Source of the DNA: Dirinaria sp. TL-2023a
Taxonomy: Eukaryota
Reading direction: 5' to 3'
DNA length: 32,200 nt
Assembly: GCA_051941275.1 (NCBI GenBank)
Contig: JAVEBF010000084.1
Span: 1-32,200 of the forward strand
Position 1 is the stretch's first letter, and each line of letters begins with the position of its first letter. Of the stretch, positions 1 to 21,967 are shown piece by piece. The notes beneath the pieces were generated by a model. It searched no databases, was not told the DNA's origin, and saw only the letters and a program-made list of their open reading frames with translations. Position numbers and translations under genes: made by a program.

Positions 1-59
1 GAGGAGGAGCGTTTTCGTTTTTGGAGGTGAGGTGGTAGGTGAGGACCTACGGTTGACAT
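1..59 (-). CDS. 5' end (partial, runs off the window) of a probable GPALPP-motif / DUF3752-family protein
   Basis: Reverse strand from ATG at 59 reads MSTVGPHLPPHLQKRKRSS..., resembling the 'MSxxGPxLPPHLxKRKR' N-terminus of fungal GPALPP1/DUF3752 proteins. Only 19 codons are visible. Confidence 0.5.
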   Translation of the reverse strand, partial: MSTVGPHLPPHLQKRKRSS

Positions 60-821
60 TTCTGCAGCTGGTGGGTTTGATATTGGGCAGAGGTGTGCTG
101 GATATTTGGAGCTAGGGGGATATTTGTTTGGGACTGTATCCTGTATCCTTGTGAGTTGTAAGGGAGGTCCATTGATATCACGTGAACACGCCAAGAAATC
201 GATATGATAACAACTTCATCCTAATAAGGTAAGGTAGTTGGGTCTCAGGACTTTTACTTCATTTCCGAGGAGATCACTCGAATGATCCTCAAGCTTGCTC
301 CAATCTGCTGTTCATATCATCCTGATACAATGGAAGATAGGCTAGGGATAGGTCACAGGATATCCTGAGGTAGATGCCCACGAGACTCATTTAGGACTTG
401 ATCTTTGCAATCTACGCCTTATGCCATCGTCGAACAGAATCTAAGGTGGAGAAGACTGTTTGGTGCCTTTTCCACATGGCGCATCGGGAGCGATAGCAGC
501 ATCTCAATATGGCGCTATCTATTTCAGTGCAACGGTGGTATGTGTGGGGTTAAATTCGCGATCATCTTCTAACATACGCATGTTGCTCCCAAAGAGTTAC
601 TGTCTGCAGGATTCAAATGCTAAGCTGATGCTTTTTGCACAGCTGAAGCGATCTCACAGATTCTGCGCTTACCTGATACCAGCGTGGTAAGAGGATACTA
701 AGGTCGTTGTGATTTCCATTTCAAGTCTCCTCATACCTCATTGTCTGGACGCATTTGGCAAACCTACCACTGCCTCTTTTAGCGAGCGTCGCTTTGCATC
801 TAAGAACATCAAATATCAGTC

Positions 822-2485
822 ATGGCCCTCCACGGTGTCGGTAGCGACCGCAAGCATTTCAATGACTGGCCAAACGAACCCAGATTGGAGACCTTGCGGG
901 AGCAAGAGGATCCCGTGCAATTGAAGGTGTCAAGCCAAATCCCACCCTACACTGCCGGAGTCCTGTACCACAGTGGGCCTGGAGGTCACTAGATCGGCAT
1001 CGTGAGTAAGGGCACATTCGAAGCATCCCACTGGTTTGACAGATTCGCCCAGACGCATCGACTTGTGCTTGCCTCGCCTAAAGAAGGCGAGCATATCACA
1101 GATATCTCATAAGTGTCCGGTCATGCATGCAGTGGTATCGTCAAGGCAGCCCGCAAATTGGGCAAATTTCATGGCGTCACATTTGGACGGAGTCAGATTG
1201 ATGCGAGTCGTTCTTTAAGAAACTCATGAGCTCCTTTTCAGCTGCAATGACATCTGGGCCTAAACCGACTACAGAGGTAAACATGGGCGTGACCGTGGGA
1301 TCTGATATGCCCGTTAGGGGACATCAATCGAGCAACCCAGGCACTAAGAATGGGAATTGAGTCAGCAATCTATGAATCAAGACTGACAGTGCTGTCTTAC
1401 ATTTGATCAATCCCACAACGTTAGAACCAATCTCCACTTTGCGCCACTCGAGGCTGTGTCTGTCGCTGGGAGGGCTATTTACCGCCTATACTCACGGATG
1501 GATCCCACGACGGGAGATTGCCATGATTCCAATCTCAACGTTGGAAGAAAGGCGACATATCGGGTCTTCCGAGTCTCAGCATCAGCCAGCGAGACGAAAG
1601 CGCTTACAAGCATTTCAGACCTATGTCAAAGCGGCTGATCTTCACTCTTTAATGATGACCGAGAGGCATATCGTCTTGTGTATCTATGATGCTTCTTTTG
1701 CAGGCGGAGCAGCGAAGGTCCTTTGGACCAGGAACATACTTGACGCAATGGAATTTCATCCTGGTAAGCAGAACGTTTGGCTCGTCGTTGGCCGACAGGG
1801 TGAGAAAGATCTTGTCGGTGCATATGAATCGGATCCCCTTTTCACCTTTCATCCTGTCAATGTGTGGAAAATCCCGTCAAACATTGTGCCCGGCGCATTT
1901 GATATAATCATAGATGTGCTAGCCTACGGAGCTCTAAGTGTACTCAAGCGCTTTTACTATGACAACATGAAAAGCATATCGCCCTAATCGCTCGAATATA
2001 TCAGCGCAGACGCATGCCGTGCTCACATGCAACGTTTCAAACTTGCAGATGTCAGATCAACAACGCTGCATGTGACGAGTACGCCTCGTAGAATCCAAGT
2101 GGAACTTAAATGCTCAAGCAAGAAAACGCCGCAACTACCTACATTCAATTTAAAATTCACCTGCAAGCCATCCCGCTATATTTATGGCGTCAGCGACCCG
2201 GGCAATTCCACATTCTTAGACGGCCTTCTTAAATTCGATTTCGAGACAGACGACGCAAGCATGGATGCAGCACGCACATTCACCCGGTGAGGATTTTTTC
2301 GTGCCTAATCCTGAAGGCAATACCGATGATTATGGAGTATTGCTTTCTGTAGTGCTTGACGGGAAAAGAGCAAAAATATCTGCTTGTTCTGGATGCCAAA
2401 TCTTTTCAAGACGTTGGACGAACGGACATGGACAGTGGGATTTTCTTTTTGGTTCCACGGTAATCATGACGCTTCAGATCTATGA
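822..2485 (+). pseudogene. Carotenoid cleavage oxygenase (RPE65/CCO family, torulene-dioxygenase CAO-2/CarT-like) pseudogene
   Basis: Family-typical segments are spread over all three frames: ATG 822 ...HFNDWPNEP..EQEDPVQLKVSSQIPPYTAGVLYHSGPG; HWFDRFAQTHRL (1029); INPTTLEPI; DPTTGD..NLNVGRKATYRVFRVS; LHSLMMTERHIVLCI; ESDPLFTFHPVNVW; KPSRYIYGVSDPGNSTFLDGLLKFD; HSPGEDFFVPNPEGNTDDYGVLLSVVLDG; YLLVLDAK; terminal FHG (2453-2461). In-frame stops at 990-992 (TAG) and 1985-1987 (TAA), plus several frameshifts. Confidence 0.85.
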
Positions 2486-3285
2486 GCTCATCAATCCGAC
2501 ACATGAGTCCTCCGCACAGCGCATGTTCCCTGCCCTGCTCCGCTCCGTCATTCCTTCATGAATGGCACTCTCAGCCCAATGATCTCATTCCAAGAAGCCT
2601 ATTTGTACATATCCACCTCAGCCATGTATCCGTGGCAATTCCAGGATCAAGTCGTCAACCACTCTAATCCCGATGATCTTCAGCTGCTGGATGGCGTGAA
2701 CTGCTAGGAACTGCATTCAGAGTCCACAAGGGGAAACTTAAGGTAGGTTTCGGCAATCCATCGAGTAGTTCGGTTGTTGAGCGTTGGCTGATTAAGGTAA
2801 GGTGTCTCACCTTTCTCCAGCCTAGCTTTGATTTAGCGTCCCGAGGTTTTCTTGCCTAAAGATATGTACCTTAAGGTATTTAACCCCCCAATTAAAGTAC
2901 TCGTACATGAAGTAGACGTACACAGTACTACTCTATGCTCGCTTCAGAGGAGACTACTGGGCATGATTCTGCGAAGAGTTGCATACATCGAATACACTCA
3001 GAGCACACGACACTTTTTGAGGGTATTCTGCGAGAATTGAGAGCCGGCAATTGTTTCATTTGTTGTACCAGCACCATGATTGGTTTGGGGATTTGCAACT
3101 ACCTGGCATGTACCCACGACTCGTCTAATAAGTACAAGGAACACCATATGTTTGCCCGCATTGGGTCATTCTTTTACACCATCCCACATGCATTCACCGC
3201 CTAGATGTTAAAATCTCGATCCGAGGAATTTTTGGCCAGATCCTATACAATGGAAGAGTGTACGAAAAAGATACCCGCATGGAGA

Positions 3286-5499
3286 TTACAGCCAACCATT
3301 ACCCTTTTCTCCAATATTCTTACAAGAATCACCCTGCACTGCCTGCAAATACCGCCCAAGGGCCATCATGGGAAAATAGTGGCGATAATAGCGGTATCCG
3401 ATATAAAAGTACCCGGGAAATCCAACCCCGGTATACAAACGCTCAGGCCATGATGCTCCTTCGCCAACGATGTCGGTCTGGGAAGACAATAGATGAGCAA
3501 CTCCCCTTTCGATGGCATCGTCGCTTGGCGAGCAATAAGCCAGCAAGCCCATGAGGGCCCACGCGGTCTGTGATGGTGTCGAAGGACCACGTCCGGCCCA
3601 TGTTGGGTCTTTGTATGATCGTAGGTCCTCGCCCCATCCTCCATCGGCATTTTGAAACCTTTTCAGCCACAAAGCTGCCGACTGTTGGATTCCCTGGATC
3701 ATACTGTTCCCTTTCGAGAAGTAGGATAGGCCTACGAGCGCCATACACGTGCCAAAAATGTAATTCGATGCCCAGCGGCCGAAGAAAGAGCCGTCTGACT
3801 CTTGGTTCCTCCGAAGGTAGGCGATTGCCCGTTCCGAAGCTGCTGTGATGCGGTTCAGTAAGTCTGGAGCGATGTACTCCTGCCGACTGAGCTGTATCAT
3901 CGTTCCGAAAGCTTCTAGGATGCGGCTAGTGACATCGGGGGTCGACGGATCACAAAGGCTCTCCATGTCGCTGAACGGGAGGCTATTCAACCACAACTTA
4001 TTGTTTTCGTGGTCAAAGCCACCCCATCCGCCATCGCGATTCTGCATCCCGCAAATCCACGTCGTCGCTCGTGCGACCGTGTCGGATTCGACAGATTGGG
4101 GATTCTGTTTAAGGAAAGCAAGTACGACGGCGGCTGTGTCATCGATATCGGGATACCAAGAGTTATAGTATTCGAAGGCAAAACCACCAGCGACTATGTT
4201 TGGTTTGAAGATGCGCCAGTCACCCTCAGGTCCAAGGATCTGACGAGCTTTCGTCCATCTGATTGCACGTCTGAGACGCTCGTCTCGAGTATCCATGCCA
4301 GCATCGCATAAGGCCCGGACCATCAAGACTGTGTCCCAAACTGGAGAAACACTTGCCTGAATTCGCTTCCCTCTTTCATCCTGCCATGCGAATCGCTCGA
4401 TCGCCTGAAGTCCGCGCTGGATCCGCATATCTCCCAAGCTAACGCCTTCGAGGACTAGAGCCTGGATATTAAGAAGCATTGGAGGCATGATCCCGGCCCA
4501 ATCACCCGCATCCTCTTGACGATCCCAGATCCATTTCACGCATTTACGTCGAGCATAGCCGCGAAGAGGAAAATATCGGAGTCCTCCAAGCGCGTACAAC
4601 ATCTTATCAAGTACGGCAAACACAAAGCCAAACCGGTCATTCTTCCACAGTTCTGCAAGTGGTGGGCTGCAGGGTACCTTTTTGTCTGCAGGGTCCGTCC
4701 AAAGCTCGTCTAGGAAATCGTTCTGCGCCGAAAGACCATTGGGTAAAGCATAAAGAGGTCGATGATGGCAAATGATAAGCAGTGGCACAACATGCGCGCG
4801 AGCCCATGAGGAAACTAGGTATATATTGATTGGAGACGACCCGGGCATGAGAATAAACTCTGTGGGAAGTTGGGGTACGGTATCCCAGGAACAGAGACCG
4901 AATTGGGCGAAGAAGATACGCGTAAATACACGAGCTTTGGCTAGTCCTCCGGCTCCCAGGATGAAGTCGCGCGCTCTTCGCATTTGAGCATTATCTCTTG
5001 AAACTCCGAGGATCTTCAGAGCCAGGTAAGCTTCAGCAGTGGCTGAGACATCACCAGCATACTCAGGCGCTATTGCCCAAGATCCATCTGAGTTTTGTTC
5101 CGACAAAAGATAGGATTCATATGCCTTCCCGTCGAGATCTTGATCCAGTCCGAACTTCTGACGGAACATGATATGCTCAGCGGTGACAGTCACGTTCGAG
5201 CACAGTTCAGCGCACCAGTGACCGTCAGAGTGCATCTCATCCAATGCAAATCTGGTTGCCGATGAGAGGGCTCGGGAGGTTCTTGAGAGAAGCGACTCAT
5301 CCCCTGGTTTCGGCTTCTCGTCTAGGAAGAGATTCGTTTCGACAATTGAGTCGTGGTTCATTTTGGCCTTTTCGTGTAGGAGGAGATCCGTGTCGCCGAT
5401 TGAATCATGGTTCGTTTTGGCCTTTTCGTTCAGGAGAAGATCCGTTTCGACGACCGAGACATGGCCTGATTTAGCTTGATTATCTAAGAGAAGATCCAT
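3286..5499 (-). CDS. shc: Squalene-hopene cyclase (bacterial-type class II triterpene cyclase), 737 aa, intronless
   Basis: Uninterrupted ORF. Catalytic FAFEYYNSWYPDIDDTAAV carries DxDD, not the DCTAE of oxidosqualene cyclases. QW repeats QNSDGSW, QEDAGDW, QNRDGGW, QESDGSF, QNADGGW; also SNVTVTAE, QASVSPVWDT, STPSQTAWAL and YTGVGFPGYFYIGYRYYRHYFPMMALGRY. Confidence 0.95.
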   Translation of the reverse strand: MDLLLDNQAKSGHVSVVETDLLLNEKAKTNHDSIGDTDLLLHEKAKMNHDSIVETNLFLDEKPKPGDESLLSRTSRALSSATRFALDEMHSDGHWCAELCSNVTVTAEHIMFRQKFGLDQDLDGKAYESYLLSEQNSDGSWAIAPEYAGDVSATAEAYLALKILGVSRDNAQMRRARDFILGAGGLAKARVFTRIFFAQFGLCSWDTVPQLPTEFILMPGSSPINIYLVSSWARAHVVPLLIICHHRPLYALPNGLSAQNDFLDELWTDPADKKVPCSPPLAELWKNDRFGFVFAVLDKMLYALGGLRYFPLRGYARRKCVKWIWDRQEDAGDWAGIMPPMLLNIQALVLEGVSLGDMRIQRGLQAIERFAWQDERGKRIQASVSPVWDTVLMVRALCDAGMDTRDERLRRAIRWTKARQILGPEGDWRIFKPNIVAGGFAFEYYNSWYPDIDDTAAVVLAFLKQNPQSVESDTVARATTWICGMQNRDGGWGGFDHENNKLWLNSLPFSDMESLCDPSTPDVTSRILEAFGTMIQLSRQEYIAPDLLNRITAASERAIAYLRRNQESDGSFFGRWASNYIFGTCMALVGLSYFSKGNSMIQGIQQSAALWLKRFQNADGGWGEDLRSYKDPTWAGRGPSTPSQTAWALMGLLAYCSPSDDAIERGVAHLLSSQTDIVGEGASWPERLYTGVGFPGYFYIGYRYYRHYFPMMALGRYLQAVQGDSCKNIGEKGNGWL

Positions 5500-5508
5500 T
5501 TCGACGAT
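5281..5508 (-). repeat. 54-bp (18-aa) coding tandem repeat, about 4 copies, at the SHC N-terminus
   Basis: Units DLLLDNQAKSGHVSVVET / DLLLNEKAKTNHDSIGDT / DLLLHEKAKMNHDSIVET / NLFLDEKPKPGDESLLSR at 5496-5443, 5442-5389, 5388-5335 and 5334-5281. DNA similarity continues about 9 bp upstream of the ATG. Confidence 0.9.
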
Positions 5509-8309
5509 GTCAGAGGAGAGAAGTCGTCGGCGGCACGCTCGAATCTATCGTCCTCTCTTAACTATTAACGTTGATGCCAACATTGGCGTTACAGTATATG
5601 GCATACTTGAAGGTGGTGCAACAGCAACGAATGGGCCCATCTCTGTCGCCACAGCCGAGGATTAGGCCAAAGAATGGTTGAGATTAGGAAGGAGCTCCAC
5701 GCAGCGTTAGCGGCGAACATTCGAAGAATGCATTAGCTGAATTAGGTTCCATGTCACAACCTGTGCAGGGAATGGGACGATCGATTTTCAGCTTGGCGTT
5801 GTGGCCAAATGAAACTGGGCGTGCGATTGAGCCATGTCTGCGTCTGGATCGAGTTCAGGATGGGCTCGGATGTCCCTTTGGGGATTGCTATGATGACGGA
5901 GAAAAGCCCTACCATTTACCTGGCAATGCTTATCGGTGGATAACGCGGGTCAGCTCGCTAAGTGGCATTCTGGAGACATCTAGACCTCGAACGCTAATTT
6001 TGATCGATTGTACTAGGCAAGAATCCTCCGGATGTCGTGACTTCTGGGCGTTGCTTCCAACATCTTCAACCCCTACCCCTACGGTATGGATCATATACAG
6101 TTACGTCTACGTTGATCATACGTTGATCATACAACGTTGGCGCGATTCGCCTACCCTGAAACCTTGAGAATAGGACCAGTTATACACTGGAATACTAGCT
6201 TATACTTACATTGTCAGGCCTCGGGGGCCCTCGACCCGAGGCGCATGGTCGGGCGCTTTCCGGCTCGGATTATAGCACCCGATCGGCCGCGCCGACGCAT
6301 TTCATGCAGTAGCCTTGGAATGATTCCGATTAAGAGCTGCAAAAATGTACCGGCAAGAAAGGGCATCGGACTGTGGATGACGAATGAGAAGGGTTAGGAT
6401 GCGCCAAACACTACTGGATGTAGAAGCGCTATGGCAAATCAGGCCTACCAAAGGTGCGGTAGGGCGAGGGAAAGCCAACCTCTGTTCCCGTTTAGATAAC
6501 GATTATCACGAACCTATGGAACATCGGCAATGAGCGTTACACGGCATTGGCGCCGATGGGAGAATCATTGCCGACTATCTCGCAACCCAGGTTCGCGCAT
6601 TTTCGTAACGGGTTTTGCCCAGCCCATCATCAACGTCTTCCACCCTCCCTGTCTGCCTCCCCACAGTTGCTGATACCCCAAATTTCAACGTCTCGGCTTT
6701 CATCAGGGCAGTACCGCCGCCTGCAGGGAAGATGGTGGAATCATACGCGCATACAGGATTTCTTCATCATCTGCATATCGATCAGCCAAAAATGCATCCG
6801 CTCTCGAAGACGATGATAGGCCTCGACCGATTCGCTTGCCACTTCGCTTACTCGCCTGCGCTCGTATGTCGTTCTCAACACCCTGCTTCCCTCTCCCCCA
6901 CACTCTCCTCTCGCATTCTCTCTCTCTTTTCCACTTGTCCTGGCTCGACCCAGGCCATATCGACCTGTGTAGGAAGAAGCAGAGGCCCCAGCGCACGCCT
7001 CTCCTTGGGCCCCCCAACAATATCGCCCGAACATCTGCATGCTTTTTGCTTGGCAAGGGTGTGTTGGTACGCTGGAAGTAAAAAAATCGCCTAACGTCGA
7101 TCGATCCATGCGTTTGTTCAATCAGCAAAAGTCAGGGTTAGGTCTTTGGAGGACCGTGAAGCCCGGATAAGGTAAGGTAGGGTAAGGTAGTTTGGGCACA
7201 AGCTAGGAGCTCCTGCATGGCCACCATAGCGCCGCACTAACCCTACATGCGTACGTAGCTCACCTTACAGTATCCTTACTTCCCCCAGCTTACGAAGACG
7301 ATCGTAGACGCCCGTTCCGGGGTGCACAGTACCGAGACATCATACATCCACATACATACTGTATGGAAGGATGAGCCATGTTCCAGAGGATTCACCTTTT
7401 AGGAGAAGGGAGCGGGGAAGATCATGCGCGTCTCTGTTTCCAGAGATCTCACCTCAGACGGATCCTTACAGTACGTCAAAGACCAAGCCTCTGGCCAGGC
7501 AAGCCTTCTTTTTTGCCATTTCCACACGTGGCACGGGGCCTCGGCGCGACCCCGTCCGGTATTTTATTCGTCCAGCCGTGCGCGGGCGCGGGTGGACTTT
7601 TTGGGTGCGGTGCTTGGCAAACCTTAATTCGATGCGCCTTCTTTCCCAGGCTTCCAGCGGTTTCGCCGGTTTGCCAAATTGCGATCCACCAGTCCTGTTG
7701 CATAGAGTATGTACTGCACTGTAAGGTAAGACATGTTCTTGCAACCGGTTCAGGTAAGGTGGTCCGGAGTACTGGACATCGAATGACACCTTCAGAGTAC
7801 TCCGTACGGAGACAGCATGTATCTGTCAACTGGTATTCCAATCAAAACCCCTACAAACTCCACACTAAATTGAGCCACACAGGGCGCACGGCTACCTTCC
7901 ACCCCCCCCACATTGACCATGGACTGATGCTCACTGCGAAGCGAAGAGGGTTGGGAAGAAGCAGGTTTTCGCAGCTGATATGTGCATCCACTGTAAGGAG
8001 CTCTGCTGTGTGTATCCCAGCAAGGCCAGCTAGAACTTGTAGGGTCGCCTCATGGTCATGGATCCCCCGGCCTTGATACCTGGTCCCTGGAAAGACTGAT
8101 GACTGACCCCCAGATGCACCTAATAATGAAGCACACCTGGTGACCTCTAGTCTCTAGACACGGCCCCTTCGTCTCCGCTGCATGTCTCGGCGGTCCTCAG
8201 GGCTTTGGACAAGGTTTTCACGTATTTCTTTTGTAGATCTTGGCTTATGTGCAAGGCTACATACTACTGTGTTCTTTGCGTTCCTACAAGAATCTCTACA
8301 AAAGAGTAC

Positions 8310-10014
8310 TTATTTGGCTCTTGATTCTGGCGTCAACGCCACCACCACACCATTTGCATTGAGGAGACTCAAGCCAATCTGCTCCTGCCACCTTCGTGTG
8401 TCACGGGGCTCAAGTTTGGCGAACGTTTGGAGCATCCGGATTGTCACGTAGGATGCTGATGCGAGGGCGTAGTGTTCTGTGGAATCATCCACAGGAGGAA
8501 TACATTAGCATGAGGACTTTGTTTTCTATGTTTAATTTTCGTGGTGGAATGTCTGAAGGGAGGAGGGGAAACCCAGCAAATTGGAACTTACGGCCAGGGC
8601 AAGCTCGGGGACCGAGATGGAAAGGAATATAGCCGAGTCCTTCCACTTTCAGATGTTCCCACCGTTCAGGTCGGAACTCGTGCGCGTCATCGCCGAAATT
8701 CTGGACACTGCGATGGCTAGCCCAGGAGGAAAATATCACCTGTTCGCCTTTGGAAACCACGATGGGCGAAGTACCGTTGGGCCCCCCACCGCAGGGTAGT
8801 ACGGTGTCTTTATTTGCAACCCGCCCACTGAACGGTACTCCGGGGTATAACCGCATCGCTGTTGAACTGTCAGCGTGAGGTCTCAGCATGACCAATATTG
8901 ATGCGACTACTGGTGGCAGACCTTCATTGAACACATGGCGGAGATACGCGAAGCTCTTGATTTCGTCGTACGTAGGTTCTCTGTGGCCTACGCCATCGAG
9001 GATATTTTTTCGAAGCTTTTGGAATACTCTCTCGTCCCGTGCCAGCAGATAGAATGTCGCCGTTAGCAGGCTTGCAACGGTGTCAATAGCGGCGATCAGT
9101 ATCGACTCGACTCCCTCGCGCAATGCAACAGCGTCGCTGGTGTACTCTGTGAGGGAATGCAGCATGTTGTATCCTTCCGTCGGTTCACCATTTGTCGTTG
9201 CCTTTTCTGCTGGCTGCTGCCGCTTCTCGGTAGCTTGTTTAACCCGCCGTTCTACGAATCCGTGGAATACTTGGCACGCTTTGTAGTAACGCTTGTGACT
9301 CAGGATCACATGCAGAGGACCCATGAAGCCATCTCTCGCCATTATCTTCTTCACATACACCAGAGCCTCCACGAAACGCCGCTGCTCTTCCGTCTGCGAA
9401 GGGCTCAGCATGTTCGATGATTCTCCAAGTGCGAACGCAGTCGTAAGGTCTATTACGAGTTTTAGAAAGAGAGGTTGAAGGTCACACGGAGCTCCTCCGG
9501 ACAAATGAATCTCTCGTAACAAGTTCTCAATGTGGTACTCGTGCCGCTGCAGATCCAGAATCGAACGAGTGTGAGAGAATTCGTCCCGATACACGGCCCT
9601 CGCGGCTTTCCATTCTTGGCCGTCCAAGGCCAAGATACCATGCTCGGCAACATCTTTGAAAATGTGCACCCGACCAGGACGAACATCATAGTCTGCGAAG
9701 CCGGTGACGAGGATATGCTTCAAGTTGCGCGGATCACAGGTAAAGACGATCGTCTCAGTCAAGATTTTCTGAGTAAACGTTCGACCGTGTTTATCGAACA
9801 GATTGGTGATATTCCTAAGCGCTGTCTGCCCCGCAAAGTGACGACTCGTCGTGTAGAGATTTATAAGCCCAAGGTAGTCGTATGGTTGTACTGCTGGCGC
9901 AGCCTGACAACTATTAGATCTTGAGAATTGGCTTGATTGTCGCCATCGTAATGCTTTCTTCAAGACGCATGCCACTGACAGGAATGCCAGAGCTCCAAGG
10001 AAAATGTCGAACAT
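8310..10014 (-). CDS. Cytochrome P450, CYP52 clan-like; 3 exons (10014-8922, 8858-8592, 8476-8310), about 508 aa
   Basis: N-terminal membrane anchor; [23 protein letters not shown]-helix [13 protein letters not shown]-helix NEAMRLYP (ExxR appears only after splicing 8921-8859, GTCTGC..GCTGAC..CAG); FRPERW; heme motif [11 protein letters not shown] second intron 8591-8477 (GTAAGT..GCTAAT..CAG) joins [19 protein letters not shown]. Confidence 0.92.
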
Positions 10015-13000
10015 GGTTCATCGACGATAATAATACAGGGTGATTTACAGGATAATGTACAGTACAGAACGTTCGTGGAAAGTAGAGAATGGGAAAAGTC
10101 AGGGAAAATTGGGCGCTGTTTCAACAATCGGCAACGTTACATGATCGTTGCGTTCCCAACTTTCGATTTGAAGATAATCTTTCATGCAGCTAATGCGAGA
10201 CTAGAAACCAAAAGCGAGACATCGCATCTGGCTGATACGGGAAGGATGCTGCCCACCGTAGCGAGATTGTGGGAAATTCCACCACCGAGGCAGGGTTTTA
10301 TTAGACTGCCACCCATTGGATATGAGGTTCTTAAAATGTCTGGATGGCATGAGCTGGAAAATCGCTACCCGATCCAGCCACACCCTTGCCCGTGGCTGCT
10401 GTCAATCACGCTCAATAGCATAAAGTTTCAATAGCTATATTGGCCTCAGGAGAGACAGACTCAGCGTTCAGTGCTGTCTTGGCCAACTTCGTCCGTATCG
10501 ACGAAAGGTAAAGTAACTTGCTGAATAAAGTAACTTACTGAAATGCCAGGCCGAATATAGCTTCAAAAAAAAGTGCCTCGGTCCAAGTACGTATGATCTG
10601 CTGCTTGTGACGCAGGTCTCCTGCTTGAAGCATTTGCCGAAGTTAAGAGAGAAGAGGTAACCACGTTGAACCTGATTGTCGGGCGCGCAGAATCTTGCTC
10701 GGCCTAGAAGAGGTTTGTGGGACGGCCGTAAGCATTATTACGAAATTTCGGTGCCTTCTCAAGCACGCCATGAGGCTACCACAAAAGCAGCAAAGTCCAT
10801 GGAGAAGGAGTTGATGGACTACTTCCGCTCTGATTGAGGCTGTCTCATGATCTGATCATACCTGGTCTGGAACCAACTGGTAGATTTTAGAGGTGAAGTA
10901 AGGAGGAGAACAATGTCTACCTATGCCACCAAAGTCTCACTTGTTTGCCGTATTTATGGGGCGGGTAGGCGAACGCTTCGAAAGACCGAAAGACAATGCC
11001 ATGTCCGTGCTGATGTCTGCTTGCGATAAGGTACTGTAAGGTACTCCGTACGCGCACCTCGACGAAGTGTCATAGCGCGTCCCACACACCCAAGCATTTT
11101 CCCTCGATGTCGAGAACAGGAATCAACTTTACGGGGTATTATTAGCCATGCCGACGGCATGGCCTATCCTGGTCTGTTTTTTAGATATGATCCAATGTTC
11201 TGGATCTCCGACGAAGTCCAGCGACGTACGACATCAACAAGTCTAGCGTCCCCGGGTTGATTGTCAGCAAACTGTATCATGCTGTTGAAAGCTGACCTAA
11301 GCATAATCTATACGCATAGGATAACGATACCCGCGTTTATGGTAGGTCGAGAGGGTGCTCAGTACTGCTTACTACTCTGATCGACCAGTTACTTTCTTGG
11401 ATCTATACCAATACTCGCTATGTCCCCCAACAATAGCCCAGCATTATTAAAGTCGAGGAAAGGATATGAGGCCTCGAGGCCTAGAGCCTAGCTATACTTT
11501 AGGGTTTGTTTCTAAAACGGTGACAGGTGCTATCCGACCTAGTAGTGGTTACAGCTTGGTATCGGAAGCCGTCGTCCAATAGATCGACGGTCCGCGTTTT
11601 TTCGTTCTACTAAAAGGCACTGTTGGACTTCATCTCGCCAAGTCTACAGCGGAATTTATGAGCCGCAATTGGCGCGTGCAAAAGTCTCTCTGCCTTATGT
11701 CCATGCGCATTTATCACTGCTTACTTTCGTCTATTAATATCTTCCTTTCTCAACTCGATGGTTCATGATTAAACTACAAGAGTCTTCTTTTTCTAGCGCC
11801 TTTTAACACTTAACGATTTATCGATTTGATAGTGGCACTTTCACGGAGAATCGGTTCATCGACACTTCGTGAAAACGTTATGTTGCTAAAATTCCGTTCT
11901 TTCGCTAGAGAGGAGTGTCTGCATTGAATCTCGAGACAGCAAGAGATCGAAGGATGTTTATTTGAGAGATGGAATCGAATTGAAGACACTGAATAAGAAC
12001 GATGTGACGGCAATGGGATTTCTTTTAAAAAAAAAAAGTTCCTTTCTAAATCGCGGATGTAGGGGAAGGTAGAATTTCTAGATGTCAAGGTTTCACAACA
12101 TACATTCATACACCAAATACTAATCGGCTAGCAATGCAAATGCCTCACTCATACAACCAACCTTGAATGAGTCCACCTCGTAGATCTTGGATTGGCTTTG
12201 GCGGCTTTGCCGACCAATCGTACATAGGAGACTGCCGTTTCCTAAGCTTCCTTTTTTCCTCTCTTGATCTCCTATTTGCTTGCTTTCCTGTGCCTTTTGG
12301 CCTCGAGCAACTTCATTGTTCTTCAATGGCATATGCAGATTAAGATCTTCCTCACACTTCTGCCAAGACTATCGAGAGTCGATGGAATGGGGCGTGCATA
12401 TTGACGTGATAAAAGAGTATAGTGCTCCTGTTGAGCTGTCTTTGATATATGCCCAAGCGATGCCGAATACACTGTATGCCTGCCTCATTGGACATGTACA
12501 ATACTGCTTCGTCGCCTTGTTTGGTTTTTGAATAGCGCAGCCTAGCAGTGTCCAAGTCGTAACAGGCGCGAATTTGGAAGGTCTGTTCTCCATCTCTTGC
12601 GTTCAGGTTGTTGACTACTTTGTGACGGGAGCTAAGAGGTGCGCAGATCAAGGCAATCGTGCGATTCGGAGAACGAGGATTCTGGAGTCGGTTTCCGGCA
12701 TGTGTAAGGCGGATGTCGGCAGTATATAGGGCGCGCAAGAAACAGGGATGTGTATCGTATCGGGAAGACGAGGGAAGGCACGACCTAAGGTCAGTGCTGA
12801 AAACGTTGGATACGATAAAGGAACTGGGGGTGCAGATGGGGGCGCATTTCGCGGATACTTCTAGGACGTCGACGTCGAGGAGACATTGCCTTTGACAACG
12901 ATTGGAATATATAGCTGTGTCACCTTTAGTGAGCTATCACGGTACAAATATATACTTTGCCTAAAGGCCTGCATTGGACGAGGATCCATCGACGTGGGGT

Positions 13001-13388
13001 TCTACTGATTTTCCTGAAGCCTGTGGACGTAAAACTTGTGCGGTGCGAGCCTAACACAGTTGAATGTCACCGCCGAATATCTCCTCTGCCAATAGCAAAA
13101 TCTCTGTCTTCTGTGACTGAAAGAGTTAATGTTACCGTAATGTGAAGCACAACAGTCTTCGCCCAGCGGCGCAGACTCGGTACCGTAGAGACAATCTGTT
13201 AGGGTTCCGTAGCACGCCTCTCACGCCACAATTACAGTAGCATCTGGCCTTATTTATTCTAATTCATCCACGCCGTATGAATAAAAATATCATGACGTTC
13301 GCGAGCATCACGATTGTGCCTTGTTAAGAAGGGTCGTCGCGGCTCCTATGATCGGCATCACAGAAATGAGGGCCGTGGGGCAGCTCCG

Positions 13389-16300
13389 ATGAGCTCTGCA
13401 TATGGAGAGGCCGAAGATGGTCACGCGCACAGCACAAGCACTGCGAATGAGGGTGACGATCAGGATAATGTCGAGACAAACGCAGAATATGGAGCAGATG
13501 ACTTGGTTGAGCTATCTCGACCCACGGTCTCGAGCCAGTCCGAGAGCGAACCCGAAAAGAGCGAGGATGAAAACAGCTTAAGCATCGCGGAGAAAGCTGA
13601 TTACGATCGCGAATCAGACATCACAAAGGACGCATCTCAAGGGGCTCACGTTGCTGCAACACATCTTTTGGGAGATGGAAGGCCATCAAGCGCTGATGGA
13701 TCTCTATCGATCCCAGATGATTCACCGTCTATCCAGGTAAGAAAGGGTTTACCATCATGAGGTTTCAGTTTTAACATTATTCGAGGGTTCGGCGACGTCC
13801 TCAACTGGAAGACGTTTCCACTCTCCGGCCTATGGCTCAAGTCCTACACCTTCACTACGGCCCTTCGATCGACGTTTCCAGGCGCGCTTGTCTTCTTCAC
13901 CTGCAAATTCCTATCGAGCTTCCTCTCCAGCTTTCCTCGATGTACGTTCTCGACAATCATCAGTGAGCCATTCAATTCGTGACATTGGTGATGCGGAGAC
14001 GAATCAGGCACCGTGGGATGTTGTGAGATGGACCAAACTCAGGAAAATAACAGGCCAAGCATGCTCTGAGATAGGCAAACGGAACTTTGGGAAACCTACA
14101 TGCATCGCAGTATCTGCGTCAATAGCCTTAGGCACTTCCAAGGGTATAATATTGGTTTTCGATTACAATCAGGATTTGAAGTCCATCATCGGTCCTGGTA
14201 GCAAAGGTTGGTTTCTGTTCAAGTGGATTTTCACGGCATTTTTCTGACTCGATCACGGTGCGCAGCGGTCGAATGCGGAGCAGTGACTTCGATTAGCATT
14301 TCAGCCGACCTCTCTACTATTGCCGGCGGACATGCTTCTGGTCACATTTTTACGTGGGAGCTCGCAAAACCCGCAAAGCCCTTTCTTCAGATTGTGCCCA
14401 TCGACCAACGACGTAATCCTGAGGCCGATGGACACTTCGCAGATGCCGCAGTTTTGCATGTCGGCTTTCTGGGCACAAGACACACGGCGCTGGTTTCAGC
14501 CGACGACAAAGGCATGGCGTTTTCCCATTTAGCAACACGTGGTATGGGGATTGTTGCGCGCACTGTTCGCACCACCAGGATTCTGGGTCGTTACCCAAAT
14601 AGCACGCAAACCCATTCGGTGTCACGAAAGCCAAGCTCTGTTCTTGCCTTTTCGCCGCTTTCCCTTGGTAATGCCGAACATGCGGCTGATACCATGGGGC
14701 TTGTAGCGATGTTAACGCCGTACCTGCTGGTAATAGTGTCGACAACCCCAATAGCGCAAACCCAATACAAGACCGCAAGACCAAAAGAGCTTGCACATAC
14801 AGCCATGAGCGCTGCTCTGGCTTGGTTTCCGAGTGTAAAGCTCAAGGCCCAGGATTCGGATAGCGCAGCAGTCTCTAGAGCTAAGCTTGTATATTGCTGG
14901 TCGAACATCCTCACTGTACTCGAAGTTGTCGAAGTCGAGCCCTCAGAACCAAGCGAAAAAGACGCAGCACCCTCATTGCAGTTTCGACCCAGAAGCAGAT
15001 GGAAAGCAGAAGAGGCAATCGTTGCTGTGCAATGGCTTGGTAGGTCAGTCCTGGCAATTCTCACGATCACTCAACAGCTTGTAATTCTCGAGGACAACTC
15101 CCTGCGGATGACTGATACCTCGGATTTGATTCCAAAACACATTTATCACAGGGACCTTTTCTCCCAGCACCTTAGCTGGCTCGTTGAAACTCTCGACGAA
15201 GAAGATACTTCTATGCATGGCGTTGTGGCCGATGCTTATTACATGAGCTTCAGAGCTTACAAGGGAAGGCTGTTCTTGCTTGGCTATAACGAAGTCTGCT
15301 TTGGTACAATGTCGAATTGGGCTGACCGGCTTCTGGCCCTCATGGAGGAAGGGAAATTCATAAGCGCGATCGAGCTGGCCACGTCCTACTATGTGGGAAA
15401 GGGAGAGAAGGTTACAGTCGGTCTTCCTGAAAACGATACCTCGAGGCATAACCTTGTTAACGAGAAGCTTCTTGAAATGATTTCCGCTTCGCTCAAGTTT
15501 GCGTTTGGCAAGAACAAAATTGCACAGGATAAACAACTTGATAGCAACCAACTCGAGGACCTTGCGGCTGCCTGTATCGATGCATGCTCGAGCACGGATG
15601 ACCTAGACTTCCTTTGTGAGAATGTATATCCGTGGTATGAGGAGGCCCGTGTCGAAGGCATATTCTTGGAGACTCTGGAACCGCATATATTGGACGGCGG
15701 GATTGAGAGTCTGCCTCCTACGATGATCAAAGACCTAGTCGGGCATTATACCAGCCAGGGCCTTGGTGCCCGCCTTGAGGAGATCCTTTGCCATCTCGAT
15801 TCTCATATGATGGACATCGACCAGATTACCTCGCTTTGCAAGAGAAATGGCCTTTGGGACGCATTGCTTTACGTGTGGAGTCAAGCGCTGAACGATTATA
15901 CTTCTATTCTCGATGATCTGCTAGCCTCGACCCTTCCAACCAATGGAGCAAGCCTTGATTCGGCAACAGGGTTGTCACGAACGGCGAGCGCGTCAAAAGT
16001 CTTTCCCTATCTTTCCTGCGTCCTGACAGGGCGCATTTATCCTACAGGTAAAGAGATGATTGAAGAACAAGCTTTCGCGGCCAAGGCGGAGGTATACCAC
16101 TATTTTTTCCCAAGGAGTACCAAGGGGCGAGCGCACGAATCTCAATATGCCAGCCACACTTCAGTCGTATCATACCCCAAACTTCGCCGCGTACTCGACT
16201 TTGATGCACCAAGCTTCCTCACCATGCTGAACGAAGCGTTTGAAGATTCATTTTTAGACGGACAGCATCCTCAGGCTGCGGACGGGTCAACACAGAATTT

Positions 16301-18320
16301 GAATGAGGAACAGACGTCCGGGTCTCCGGTAAAAAGGCAGACAATTGTCGATATTTTACTCGACGTCATGAGTCCGCCGAACTACGAACCTGACGACACA
16401 GTCTACCTGGATATGTTCATTGCTCGTAACCTGCCCAAATTCCCACAATTCATATTGCTTTCAGGACGCGTCCTGCACAGTGTCCTGAAAAGGCTATGTG
16501 AATTCCCAGATGATGGGGTCGCCGAAGACTGCCAACTAAGCGTCGAATACCTACTGTCCGCGTATCAGCCTCCTGACCTACCTTCGCTTATACCATTGAT
16601 ACACGATGCGCACTTCTACCGAGTGTTGAAGTCGATCTACAGAGCCGATAGACAATACGCGAAGCTTTTGGAAACTTGCTTTGAAGATGCAAGCAACCCC
16701 GACGCCATATTCGAATGCATTGGCGACTGCCTCAGACCCAGCACTGGGCTCAATGGAAGACAGATTGACGACGTTCGCCAGGTTCTTATCAAGTCCGCCC
16801 CGCAGCTGGCCTTTGCAGATCCCGTCAGAGCGGCATCGATTATAGATCAATATGCCAAGGATTTACATCCGATAATGCTCCAAGCACTAGATGAGGATGA
16901 GCGAGCTCAGCTCAATTACCTCCAGACGTTACTCGAACCCAGATCTGAAGCAGTGAACGAAGGCGCTAATCAATACAAGAAGCAGCATCTCATTGAGCAA
17001 TACGTTCGACTTCTTTGCATTTACGATCCTCACCATGTCAGCGAATATGTTGAGCACCTCAACTCGGGAGATTTGCGACTTGATCAGGTTCTGCCCGCGC
17101 TCGAAAGTAGTGGCGTGGTCGATGCGGCCATCGTTCTTATGGCGAGAGAGGGCAGAGTCCGCGATGGTATCGACAGGTTCACGCAGCACCTCAGAAAATT
17201 GAAGGCTGCCCTCGTTGGTCTGCTCGAAGGTGCCCAGGCAGTCCCAGACGCAGCCAACGCTACAGAAGCAATCCAACACCTTGCAGGCTCAATTCAGAAA
17301 TACGTTCGGGTTGGCATTTGGCTTTGCCGTGGACAGACTAAGTCATTGCATCAAAGCAAAGCGCAGCTAAAGACGCTGCAACGCTCGGAAAATGTCGAGG
17401 GCCAGCTTTCAGTGGACGAGAAGCTGTGGCTTGATCTCATCGATGCCGTCGTAGCAATCACAAGGGACGTAAGCGAGATTATAAAGCCTACGGAGGACGA
17501 GAACGAAGAGTGGAATACACAAAAACAGGACGAAGATCCCGCTGCGCCCACCCTCAGATCCTCACAGGTCGTCGCACAACTTCGCACGGTGGTGCAAGAA
17601 GCCTTTACGGCTCTGTTGGCCACCACCAATGCGCCTCGGACACCAGACGTGCGGCGTGCAGACGCTCCCTTTTTGCGGATATTGCGCGCCTTTCTCGGCC
17701 GTGCTTCGATGTCATCCTCCTCCTTGTCGAACCTGCGCTCTGTATTGAGCGCCATCTTCTCCGCATACGCTTATGAGGAGTCGCTGCTTGCTTTAGCCAA
17801 CCGTCTCCTCGATAAGGACCTTTTCGCCCACCTCAATGAAGCGGATACGTTGAGAAGAAGAGGGTGGAGACCGCTGGGCCAAGTATGTGAGGGCTGCGGC
17901 AAACGTGCGTGGGGCCCAGGAACGGGCGTGCACGTCTGGGAAGCCTGGAAACGACAGAACGAAAAGAGAGCCCACCAACCGCACGAATCAGGTAAAGCTG
18001 TTGAGCGTGGATCCGACATGAAGATGGGTGCGGGTGGCAAAGGCAAGGCCGCAACCGCCGGTCATGGGAAGGTCGTGGCAGTGCCAGATGGGGGACCCGA
18101 GGCAATGGATGGAAGGATGATGATGGGCGGGCAGGAAGCCGGAAGCGATGAGCGGAACGGCAAAGAAGATTTGGGTGCGTTGGCCATCTTCGCGTGCCGG
18201 CACATGTTCCACCGGCAGTGCTTGGTGGAGATGCAAGGAACGGAGGATCGAGGGGAAACAGGAAATGCGCCGAGGGGTTCGTTGGGGCCAGAGCTCGCAT
18301 GTCCCCTGTGCACACACTGA
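13389..18320 (+). CDS. VPS8: Vacuolar protein sorting protein Vps8 (CORVET subunit); exons 13389-13736, 13786-14206, 14266-18320, about 1607 aa
   Basis: Acidic N-terminus, SPTPSLRPFDRRFQ, PWDVVRWTKLRKI, WD40-like region (GTSKGIILVFDY, HTALVSADDKGMAFSHL), Vps8 region (WADRLLALME, LEEILCHLD), clathrin-repeat-like region, split C-terminal RING (CEGC...CRHMFHRQC...CPLC). Introns 13737-13785 and 14207-14265 restore a single frame. Confidence 0.93.
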
Positions 18321-18437
18321 GGAGGGAAGGGGGCGGCGGCGGCCGGTATCAGGTGAAGATTCGAGCAATCTTCTTGTATTGTAAAATTTTTAGATCGATG
18401 CCAGATTTTTGCCATGTGCAGATCCAGGGATAAGGCA

Positions 18438-18456
18438 TCTCTCTCTCTCTCTCTCT
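18438..18456. repeat. (TC)n microsatellite downstream of VPS8
   Basis: About 9 consecutive TC units. Confidence 0.8.
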
Positions 18457-18735
18457 CCCTACCTATTTTACGGTAGATAGAACTGCAAGATACCTTAAGG
18501 CAAAGTACTTTACTCGAGAGACATGGCGCCACTACCTTACTCTACAGTACCTTATGCTAAGGTAGGTCCAGAGTTTATCCTCCAGGGCAGGTTCGAGTAC
18601 ACCCGAAACGACCCTGGTGGTCCCTTTTCTTCGTAAGATGAGATCTGGGAATGGCCCCTGAGATGCTTTGCCATATTCACATCCAATCGTTGGCCACATT
18701 CATGCTCTGGCTTCTACTGTACCTACTTCATGCGG

Positions 18736-18736
18736 C

Positions 18737-18795
<59 letters not shown>
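18736..18795. repeat. Compound (TC)n-(TTTC)n microsatellite
   Basis: About 17 TC units (18743-18776) followed by TTTC units. Confidence 0.9.
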
Positions 18796-19911
18796 GCGTT
18801 GATGCCAAGGCTTGAGTGAGTGTTTCAGGATAGGACGCGTACCGTATTCCAACAACCAATCCATCTCATCCCCGCCGTAACTCTAATATTCCTTTTCCCC
18901 ACCATTCCACACCAACTTCTGATTAATTATTCACATCCACGACATGTCTGACGCGTCGTGCAGGACGGGGGAGGGGTGGATGGGGATTGAGGAAGGCGAT
19001 CAGGGCTTTAGGGTTGTCACCGAGACTCTGTTTCAGGATATGATTTGCTGCTGGCGTGATTTGGTCTTTGGATGGGTTGATGGGGCAGTCACACATGATT
19101 GAGTGTCTCAGCGAGCGGATTGGCTGGCGTGGTCCATCTATTCCCCCTCCCACCGCTCGCTTGCATGTTTCGGCCCGCGCCAAACCCCGAGTAGCGTTTT
19201 TGGCCTTTTGGGACTCGCAAGCCCATCCAGACCTTACCTTAATCATCCTCCTACTCTGCTCGACCGAGGCTTTGCAGCAGGGCCCCCCATGTGGAAAAAC
19301 GGCAGATACTGAATCCAAACACCCCCGTGATGATGAAGGTTGGTCACTTATTGATGTCGGCGCATAAATCATCTAAATTGTAAGGGGCCTCATCCTACTG
19401 GGCCCCACGCACACCCGTCGCCTTGACTTTCTCTCTCCCCCATCGCGACTTTGTGGATCACAGGTTGCTAGGCACTGATCTTCTCAGTCTTGACGCCATA
19501 CGATGCCTGCAATGGGCAGAGAGTCTTGATCTAGATCAAGCCTGCCTTGGTAAACATGAATCTGGCATCCCCTGCAAGCTTCTCACCACTCGAGTCGTCT
19601 GTTTTTGTTTTTGTTTCAGGGTGACCAGTGACAGCACTCACCATGGGGCCGTGGGGCAGGACAGCTCGACTCCTGAGTTTGGGATGCATCCTTGGAACAT
19701 GGACCTTTTGATTATTGGGGGCACTTTGCTATATCTCTATTACTCTCTCTTTTTTTCTTTTCTTGTTTTCTTCTTTCCTTCGCCAAGTGCAGCTATCTTC
19801 TTCCCAGTCACTCTTTAGGCGGTGTGGTCGAGTCGGTTTTTCATCTAAGAACTGTGCATTTCGTGCAGCTTCTGTATACTGGTTATACACGTTTCGTTTC
19901 ATTCACACAGC

Positions 19912-21394
19912 ATGTATTTCGCTACCCTGCTCCTCGGCGCTCGGCTCGCCCAACTCGGCCTTGCCGCCTACAGCTTGAAAGATGATTACTCGGGAAACAA
20001 CTTCGCCAACATGTTCGGCTTTGATACCGTGAGTCTGAAGAGAATTTACGCAAGCACCGGTGCTGACCAAACGATAGGAGGATGATCCTACCCATGGCTA
20101 CGTCAACTACGTGGACCAGAACACTGCCCAGTCGCAGGGCTTGTACAGCGTCAACAACGGGGTGGTGACGCTTGGTGTCGATCATACGAACGTAGCGTCC
20201 GGGCGAGGACGCAACAGCATTCGTGTTACGAGTCACGCTCAGTACACACATGGACTTGTTGTACTTGATCTAGCCCACATGCCTGGCAGCATCTGCGGCA
20301 CATGGCCTGCATTGTGAGCTTTCAATCTTTCTTCTCCAAGAGCAAGCCATGCTGACTGGGACTTCAGCTGGATGACAGGTCCCAACTGGCCGAATAGTGG
20401 AGAAATCGATATCATTGAAGGCGTCAATAGCCAATCCCAAAACAAGATGAGCTTGCATACCAGTGATGGTTGCTCCGTCCCTCAGGGTAACTGCCAAGGC
20501 AACCAAGGTTGTTCTATTGACAACGGCGGCTCAAGCTCCTATGGCAATGGCTTTAACTCCGCAAATGGAGGCACTTACGCTATGGAATGGACCAGCTCAC
20601 AGATTAGCGTCTGGTTCTTCTCTCGTGGTAGCGAGCCAAGTGACATCAACTCTGCCAGTCCAAATCCCACGAATTGGGGCAGTCCTACTGCAAGCTTCGC
20701 AAGTGGTTCAAGCTGCGATATCGATTCGCATTTCATGAACAACAACATTGTATTTGACACTACGTTCTGCGGCGACTGGGCTGGTCAAGTCTTTTCTTCC
20801 GACAGCACTTGCTCTGCGTTAGCGTCCAGTTGTACGGACTATGTCCAGAACAATCCGAGCGCATTTGCGAACGCTTACTGGGCAATCAATTACCTTAAGG
20901 TATACGAGCAGGGAGGCGCCTCTACTCAAGTTGCTATTGCCACTTCTTCGTCGGTCCACTCTGCTGCTTCGATCGCCCAAACTGCTTCATCGGCTCCCAT
21001 TCCAACATATCATTCCTCGTCCGCCGCTCAACCCCCGCCATCAGGCCATGTCAGCTCGTTAATAGGCAGGTCTACCACAAGCGAGAGTCCCGGTGTTCCG
21101 AGCGCCACGCCTGCTTCGCCACCAGAAACAGGGTCTGTGGCCACGCACACAGTCGTTGGTACTGGCATCGTTACTCAAACACGACAATCATCGGCGTCTC
21201 CAGAAGCAATGTCAGTGACCACCGAATACACTACTGGTAATGGGGTTGTTACTCAGACAGCGGAACCATGGACAGGCAGAGGATCTCATCACGGACACCA
21301 GCGTCCTCCAAGTCCATGGCAGGGAGGTCCGCAGGTCAGGAGGAGCAGGGTAGCGAGGCATATCAGGGAACATGCGGGTGGACACCACTCTTAG
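19912..21394 (+). CDS. Secreted GH16 endo-1,3(4)-beta-glucanase (fungal Lam16A/Mlg1-like) with Ser/Thr-rich tail; exons 19912-20028, 20078-20313, 20368-21394, about 459 aa
   Basis: Signal peptide MYFATLLLGARLAQLGLAA; DPTHGYVNY; GRGRNSIR; HMPGSICGTWPAFW; catalytic GEIDIIEG; IVFDTTFCGDWAG. Introns GTGAGT..GCTGAC..TAG and GTGAGC..GCTGAC..CAG. The first acceptor could be 3 nt further downstream. Confidence 0.92.
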
Positions 21395-21967
21395 ACCACC
21401 TGACGAGGATGCAACTCTTTTTGCTCGGCGTGGAGCTGCTCCGCGATTCATTCGTTCACGATATAATTCGGCCCCTGGTGGTTGGACCTTTCGACATCGC
21501 AATATATTCTGGCATCCCAGATACACATACTTTGAAGGATAATCCCGGTTTTGAATGTCGGGAAGAATTATCTGTACATAATTCACTTCTTGAATGATCA
21601 GCACATAGCCATTGACAAGACCAAGCATTTGCCTGACTGCCGTGCTCAAAAGGACCAGCATGTGATATGCACAAGTTAAAATTCTGAAAACAACCTACAA
21701 CTCAAGCCCCTGCCAAGACTTGCGGAAGCCTTTCCTTATCCGACTTAGCCCCATCCAAAAGCTTGAGACGCAACTTCAAGAAGTTTTAGTGGCCTGATTG
21801 ATAGTCTGCAGGCGCATTTACTCTCGTAGCATCTTTCATCCTCAATGACGTTTCTCCTAAGGTCCATCGTCTTTTCTCCCCTCTAGACCTGTGCTGTATC
21901 CTCCTGTGATTCCTCGAGGCCCTCCCCGCAAACTCATTGATTGGAACGTGGGCGGCTGCTTTTGACA

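Follow-up and report, generated by a model that had tools for sequence, protein, structure and literature searches.

A conserved squalene-hopene cyclase and cytochrome P450 gene pair in Dirinaria, a minimal variant of the fumihopaside-type cluster and a candidate for lichen hopane biosynthesis

The fumihopaside (afum) cluster of Aspergillus fumigatus consists of the squalene-hopene cyclase (SHC) AfumA, the cytochrome P450 (P450) AfumB, the glycosyltransferase AfumC, and the transcription factor AfumD, according to the parts of PMC11925756 and PMC11051388 that deal with it. AfumA turns 2,3-oxidosqualene into a hopane, and C-24 and C-30 are oxidised by AfumB (pathway section of PMC11925756). The fernane clusters efu, fso, and pol are described here from portions of PMC11371599, PMC8403587, and PMC9476466, with the cyclase sequences from the supplement of PMC13657253; the cyclases EfuA, FsoA, and PolA are DxDD SHC homologues, and polytolypin is a known fernane pathway of a cyclase plus P450s only (passages of PMC11371599). 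The present analysis concerns a stretch of 32,200 nucleotides from the lichen-forming fungus Dirinaria sp. TL-2023a (contig JAVEBF010000084.1; hereafter the window), which contains an SHC gene and a P450 gene on the same strand. This pair is a real, conserved, minimal variant of the known afum-type cluster and, judged from its sequence, a strong candidate for lichen hopane biosynthesis. An earlier note on the same DNA had proposed an uncharacterised pathway; the locus is the afum core without afumC and afumD rather than a new pathway type.

The two genes (Table 1) are co-oriented on the minus strand with 2,810 bp between them, and the earlier description of an intact DxDD cyclase and an intact P450 some 2.8 kb apart is borne out by the reading frames, the Pfam matches, and the splice joints in RNA. 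The SHC has the two-domain N plus C architecture of its family (SQHop_cyclase_N, E 6e-102; SQHop_cyclase_C, E 9e-114), and it scores 621.6 bits against TIGR01507 (curated cut-off 431.1) and 246 against the oxidosqualene-cyclase (OSC) model (cut-off 851). Its acid motif is of the DxDD type, not the DCTAE of OSCs, and the aromatic cation-stabilising residues are kept. Alignment to the SHC of Alicyclobacillus acidocaldarius (AacSHC; E 6e-136) shows both the DxDD motif and the aromatic cage to be conserved. AacSHC is also the best structural match (Foldseek E 3e-43; template modelling (TM) score 0.91 by target) of the AlphaFold model, which has a predicted local distance difference test (pLDDT) value of 82 and a predicted TM score (pTM) of 0.84, with residues 1–67 at low confidence. 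The predicted cyclase belongs, by these features, to the SHC family and would form hopene or hopanol. The low-confidence N-terminal part carries an in-frame repeat of 18 amino acids, with one copy fewer in P0003, P0186, and P0004 and no counterpart in more distant relatives. An additional coding exon upstream was considered and rejected, since stops interrupt the frame there and no coding exon of any length comes from the leader.

Both introns of the P450 gene are of the GT-AG type, and the spliced protein of 508 amino acids has unbroken EAMR and GPRACPG motifs. All features of a functional P450 are present, including the N-terminal anchor, the acid-alcohol pair of the I-helix, ExxR, PERW, and the haem cysteine. 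Intron 1 is left in the public gene model P0123 (99% identity to the P450 frame), where it reads as a 21-amino-acid insert in ExxR; public models (P0123, P0125, P0126, P0135, and P0155) often retain or end at this stop-free intron, and constructs made from such models would be inactive. Relatives of the P450 bear the automatic labels "alkane hydroxylase" and "cytochrome P450 52A2", and a GGGPxG insert, presumably linked to the CYP52 clan, is found in the window P450. The assignment to the CYP52 clan in the earlier note is tentative, and the enzyme is an AfumB homologue rather than an anonymous clan member. A PDB search with one spliced relative of the P450 matched only the distant P450BM3.

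RNA was available as four runs of one lichen sample of a close relative, from one study, with 21–24% of the sampled words present; the RNA contigs give neither strand nor expression level. They cover both genes at about 97% identity, with a contig depth of about 30–130 (runs X1–X3) vs 0–7 over the spacer and the neighbouring VPS8 gene, a depth that cannot rank genes and is not used as an expression level. Both genes are intact in the window, and they are spliced and transcribed in this near relative. Co-expression had been put forward as a check: one and the same lichen sample yields RNA contigs of both genes, spliced joints included, but such contigs cannot show co-regulation. Within 800 nucleotides of the SHC, 16 of the 20 differences are synonymous and four are non-synonymous (ratio of non-synonymous to synonymous change, pN/pS, 0.074; p 9e-8), and this part of the gene is under purifying selection.

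Table 1. Positions of the SHC and P450 genes, their parts, and the neighbouring gene remnant in the window
Feature	Position	Strand	Remarks
SHC coding sequence, AfumA clade	5499-3286	-	open frame, 737 amino acids; coding part a single exon without intron
DIDD catalytic-acid motif	4149-4138	-	residues 451-454; equivalent of AacSHC D374-D377 by alignment
Tandem repeat in SHC N-terminal extension	5308-5469	-	54-bp unit (18 amino acids), in frame; low-confidence part
SHC 5' leader intron, GT-AG	5545-5606	-	joint in RNA contigs of 1/4 runs
Transcribed region upstream of SHC, probably 5' leader	5607-6203	-	RNA contigs, which give no strand or start
P450 exon 1	10014-8922	-	ATG at 10014; membrane anchor to K helix; I-helix AAIDT
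P450 intron 1	8921-8859	-	63 nt, in frame, stop-free, splits ExxR; RNA joint in 4/4 runs
P450 exon 2	8858-8592	-	GGGPNG insert, PERW motif, haem Cys (codon 8601-8599)
P450 intron 2	8591-8477	-	115 nt, directly after haem-Cys motif; RNA joint in 4/4 runs
P450 exon 3	8476-8310	-	up to stop, which ends at 8310
Broken carotenoid-oxygenase (RPE65-family) gene	~843-2470	+	convergent with SHC; in-frame stops, frame changes

Of 8,000 candidates in a protein search with the SHC, 3,369 matched with an E value no higher than 1e-50; the best 120 are 53–86% identical, and every organism-named one is fungal. The SHC is 56% identical over 688 amino acids to an A. fumigatus AfumA allele, AfumA being represented by strain alleles chosen by gene numbers adjoining those of AfumB-cluster genes. 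The P450 search returned 63 matches, three of them labelled afumB, and Af293 AfumB itself sits in the cluster of one match; identity to this protein is 51% over 477 amino acids for the spliced P450 and 48% over 498 for the public model. Consecutive gene numbers or accessions link the SHC and the P450 in seven named taxa, namely Chaenotheca, Thyridium, Loekoesia, Lasallia, Heterodermia, A. fumigatiaffinis, and A. fumigatus. Furthermore, 13 of 62 P450 matches lie on contigs exactly as long as the contig of one of 122 SHCs, for which the chance expectation is 0.09 on average and three at most (10,000 jittered sets). In metagenomes, the best 80 of 507 P450 loci were scanned, and 37 of the 80 had at least 2.5 kb of flank on both sides; among these, an SHC stands beside both close P450s (51%) and beside none of the 35 distant ones (38% or less). 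The other 43, including the four close loci L001, L010, L026, and L036, were too short-flanked for the linkage test. In locus L039, the pair is divergent and is followed by NOL10 and MED13 homologues, and no glycosyltransferase occurs among the listed frames of at least 120 amino acids on the NOL10/MED13 side, with about 600 bases available beyond the SHC. Since the pair is divergent and lies in another gene setting in L039, it survives rearrangement and recurs elsewhere. SHC–P450 linkage, which the earlier note had singled out for checking in relatives, is widely conserved among fungi. In addition, Penicillium proteins share 90% clusters with A. fumigatus AfumA and AfumB (P0136/P0213; P0268/P0295/P0296), a co-clustering that hints at a horizontal transfer of the afum cluster.

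The same linkage bears on whether the two neighbours, both active, serve different ends, with the P450 acting on another lipid such as alkanes or fatty acids in the manner of CYP52. The automatic name "alkane hydroxylase" among the relatives points that way, as do the 2.8-kb gap and the lack of a shared divergent promoter at the window locus. However, the linkage is kept across several fungal classes and despite a change of orientation, none of the 35 distant CYP52-like loci adjoins an SHC, and the characterised homologue AfumB oxidises a hopane, so that a P450 working apart from the cyclase is very improbable.

The SHC tree, built with FastTree, holds 173 rows, 156 fungal and 17 bacterial. 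The fungal SHCs split at the equivalent of AacSHC Q262 into 73 rows with Phe or Tyr vs an 83-row clade (support 99) that is non-aromatic in 82 rows and has a gap in one. This clade contains the window SHC, AfumA, the Heterodermia SHC, those of the hopane-producing genera Moelleriella and Conoideocrella, and several lichen enzymes; the window SHC and AfumA share the clade without being sisters. A mixture-model tree of a chosen 41-row subset recovers the clade (Shimodaira–Hasegawa-like approximate likelihood ratio test, SH-aLRT, 99), and fungal monophyly itself is not resolved there. All 26 rows scored as P450-linked fall in the 83-row clade and none among the other 73, although some of the 26 are duplicates or only indirectly linked, and the search for partners from the window P450 biases the scoring. 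The SHCs of the Phe-262 group have other partners than this P450. In the fused models P0188, P0208, and P0251 of that group, the SHC is joined either to a P450 of greater distance or to a neighbour of another kind, and an A. udagawae SHC of the other group adjoins a more distant P450 (37–40%). The P450 tree has 70 rows; in it, the window enzyme belongs to a group rich in lichen sequences (support 90), next to that of AfumB (support 96), and it lies outside the clade of the Heterodermia, Lecanora, and Loekoesia enzymes.

The tree comparison with AfumA and bacterial SHCs, advised in the earlier note, thus groups the window SHC with AfumA in a fungal clade, and the label "bacterial-type" holds for the protein family but not for the gene, which nests among fungal SHCs. 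The best bacterial relative among 75 loci is 49% identical. The GC content at third codon positions is 0.53 in the SHC, 0.56 in the P450, and 0.55 in the VPS8 frame. A recent bacterial import was rejected on these grounds, namely the best bacterial identity of 49%, the deep nesting among fungal SHCs, and third-position GC like that of the neighbours. The bacterial SHCs nearest to the fungal ones come from Bdellovibrionota and Myxococcota (L081, L083, L086, L095; 47–49%), and they have Phe at site 262, as one fungal group does.

In SHCs, the DxDD acid protonates a terminal olefin or an epoxide and aromatic residues guide the pentacyclisation, while whether the cation loses a proton or captures water depends on the pocket around E45/Q262; a literature search aimed at the Q262 site found no paper naming it among the matches listed. 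In the first approximately 400 residues of EfuA, FsoA, and PolA, compared by eye, sites 261–262 read YW, FF, and FF and site 42 is Phe, whereas these sites are IM in the window SHC and II in AfumA, with Val at site 42 in both. The window SHC thus does not have the fernane-type aromatics of sites 42 and 262, which were defined from three sequences, and Pfam finds no fused glycosyltransferase domain in it. Both observations argue against a rearranged product skeleton, whether fernane or another, of the kind made by EfuA, FsoA, and PolA; such an outcome, improbable here, draws on the likewise DxDD-type homology of these three enzymes and on the occurrence of fernanes in lichens (parts of PMC11371599).

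Because of the chemistry of AfumA and AfumB and the lack of fernane-type aromatics at sites 42 and 262, the SHC is predicted to form 22-hydroxyhopane and the P450 to hydroxylate it, with a probability of roughly four in five. The hopane skeleton, the capture of water, and the action of the P450 on the SHC product are all three inferred. The two genes would constitute a secondary-metabolite module sharing an ancestor with afumA/afumB. The DxDD acid of the SHC would protonate the C30 polyene, which would fold to the hopanyl cation and be quenched by water to 22-hydroxyhopane; the P450, anchored in the endoplasmic reticulum and supplied by a general reductase, would then hydroxylate this scaffold, and the locus would add no sugar. 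The earlier proposal that a cyclase and a P450 together make a simple hydroxylated hopane is supported by the AfumA/AfumB homology and the conserved linkage.

The choice of substrate turns on further pocket residues. At site 490 (AacSHC G490), the window clade and the AfumA clade have Ala (16 of 156 fungal rows), and at site 495 (AacSHC Y495), the window enzyme has Phe instead of Tyr (8 of 156), while the Heterodermia SHC has Gly at 490 and Tyr at 495. A Tyr at 495 presumably strengthens the catalytic acid. Because Ala490 is common to the AfumA clade and Phe stands at 495, the window enzyme is taken to lean towards the easier epoxide substrate. In that case, 2,3-oxidosqualene would give hopane-3beta,22-diol, to which the P450 would add a hydroxyl, with C-1beta as the candidate position, and an acetyltransferase encoded elsewhere would complete an acetylated hopane triol; this 3-oxygenated route stands at about even odds. 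It fits 3beta-acetoxyhopane-1beta,22-diol, a presumed Dirinaria hopane for which the literature searches gave no confirmation of the genus link. A table of lichen substances lists the compound but gives no source for it (PMC11814408). Two P450-linked SHCs, those of Chaenotheca and Thyridium (P0017, P0067), have the last Asp of DxDD replaced by Gly and Asn, respectively, and this loss may be a sign of epoxide-only cyclases.

A second version of the same pathway, in which squalene would give 3-deoxy diplopterol and a 6alpha- or similar hydroxylation would lead to zeorin-type diols, is a sub-case of the 22-hydroxyhopane reading. The complete DxDD motif and the AacSHC-like pocket are compatible with it, and the clade and the gene pair are shared with a metagenome-assembled genome of Heterodermia, other species of which are reported to contain zeorin (PMC10410537, in part). 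However, the nearest characterised enzyme, AfumA, takes oxidosqualene, the window clade has Ala490 as the AfumA clade does and has lost Tyr495 where Heterodermia has Gly and Tyr, the clade of the Heterodermia, Lecanora, and Loekoesia P450s does not include that of the window, and the presumed Dirinaria hopane is 3-oxygenated. The step from diplopterol to zeorin in the earlier note is therefore possible but unlikely, and it ranks below a 3-oxygenated hopane for the Dirinaria genome. The most likely product of the pair is a non-glycosylated hydroxylated 22-hopanol, 3-oxygenated more probably than zeorin.

The need for oxygen bears on the other suggestion of the earlier note, an oxygen-independent sterol surrogate as in Schizosaccharomyces japonicus, weighed here as the main task of the SHC; the role is described for that yeast in part of PMC13556965. 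Wet thalli may turn oxygen-poor, but the SHC has a P450 that depends on O2 as its conserved partner, and oxidosqualene, the substrate of the closest characterised cyclase, needs O2 for its formation. Nothing was found in support of a surrogate function, which is the least probable of the explanations weighed.

Several points weigh against a P450-hydroxylated 22-hydroxyhopane as the product of the pair, beginning with the fact that the product and the enzyme activities are predictions. At 51% identity, the regiochemistry of AfumB cannot be transferred to the window P450, and the two P450s are not sisters in the tree. The tree distances of 23 SHC–P450 pairs correlate (Mantel r 0.87), a correlation explicable by vertical descent alone. 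The linkage drawn from equal contig sizes is indirect, and 49 of the 62 P450 matches have no matched SHC (only top SHC matches were available for pairing). The metagenome loci L038 and L039 are near-identical, full-length copies that make one independent case, and their SHC and P450 are divergent, not tandem. The SHC of A. coremiiformis, near the AfumA clade, retains Gly at 490, and the roles given above to sites 262, 490, and 495 are presumed ones. The RNA comes from a single sample and study, and its contigs can neither rank expression nor demonstrate co-regulation. Finally, no literature tying any hopane to Dirinaria was found.

The pair comprises the only intact genes found at positions 1–13,300, as the earlier note had claimed for its segment while overlooking the broken RPE65-family gene; small or heavily spliced genes might escape such frame scans. 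Seven longer non-gene frames in this segment have no Pfam match, 46 short frames have none at the cut-off and only two weak sub-threshold ones, and a protein search with the 193-amino-acid frame at 12355–12933 gave no usable match. Neither an AfumC-like glycosyltransferase nor an AfumD-like transcription factor occurs at 1–13,300, up to the contig start at base 1, and to this extent the earlier report of no tailoring or regulatory neighbours stands. The RPE65-family gene was considered as a pathway member and rejected, being broken here and not among the recognised frames beside the pair in L039; this remnant probably lies outside the pathway. At the remnant, 497–1838 is covered by an RNA contig of low depth from the related lichen, with an intron joint at 601–660; it diverges more than the contigs over the two genes do, with 99 differing letters and 19 gap letters out of 1,327.

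Elsewhere in the spacers, low-depth RNA contigs lie at 6637–6999, 10101–11071, and 12139–12765, and a plus-strand GT..AG joint at 5947–6016 upstream of the SHC occurs in one of the four RNA runs; no protein family was matched by either. The motif AAGGTAAGGT recurs in intergenic DNA (220–235, 2788–2803, 7163–7178, and 7745–7760). VPS8 starts at about 13,300, after the SHC–P450 segment, and 13300–31963 holds ordinary genes by Pfam, namely VPS8, an ERV/ERGIC transporter, an IBR/RING protein, a mannosyltransferase, and ERO1. The frame at 20318–21394 has no Pfam match and presumably resembles a glucanase.

Hopane diols and acetates are standard lichen substances (table in PMC11814408), and SHC homologues in Lecanoromycetes have been noted before (part of PMC9476466). 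According to a section of a 2025 review, the gene clusters for lichen terpenes, that of zeorin for example, have no evolutionary or phylogenetic analysis available (PMC11923402), and the main text of a survey of lichen terpene clusters contains "hopene" and "hopan" 0 times by word search (PMC11457338). No literature linking lichen hopanes to genes was among the matches listed, which mostly do not cover subscription journals, the usual outlet. The corrected exon boundaries make the lichen-hopane question testable as a two-gene unit, and the P450s of relatives may hydroxylate the inert pentacycle at varied positions. Tentatively, and at somewhat less than even odds, the two-gene module could be the general genetic basis of the lichen hopanes that serve as chemotaxonomic markers. 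The 262-non-aromatic SHC clade would supply 22-hydroxyhopanes, changes at 490, 495, and 377 would switch between squalene and oxidosqualene, and the co-inherited P450 would have radiated in regiochemistry, to C-1, C-6, C-7, C-15, and C-16 among lichens and to C-24 and C-30 in Aspergillus. On this reading, the window P450 would be a first hopane C-1beta hydroxylase.

The architecture of a cyclase with P450s is itself unsurprising given afum and pol. Compared with AacSHC, the window SHC has the same fold and keeps DxDD, W169, W312, F365, W489, F601, F605, Y609, and Y612, but it is only 37% identical, and its best bacterial relatives, from Bdellovibrionota and Myxococcota, reach 45–49%. The fungal onoceroid clusters homo, fumi, and alli likewise have an SHC/OSC-like core gene, but they need a second cyclase of the Pyr4 family (cluster descriptions in PMC11109268); none was recognised in the window, where no dedicated profile was run. 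The efu, fso, and pol clusters resemble the locus in having a DxDD SHC-family cyclase clustered with P450s, whereas EfuA is fused to a glycosyltransferase and the fernane clusters have two or three P450s plus further tailoring genes. The afum cluster is the closest, with a homologous adjacent SHC (56%) and P450 (51%), the same SHC clade, and nearly identical pocket residues. It differs in having AfumC and AfumD where the window has no glycosyltransferase or regulator, in site 262 (Ile in AfumA, Met in the window) and site 495 (Tyr vs Phe), in the separate lichen-rich branch of the window P450, and in the 18-amino-acid N-terminal repeat of the window SHC, whose product is only predicted. The pair is thus predicted to work like the afum core, and it falls outside the afum cluster proper because neither a glycosyltransferase nor a regulator accompanies it on the contig.

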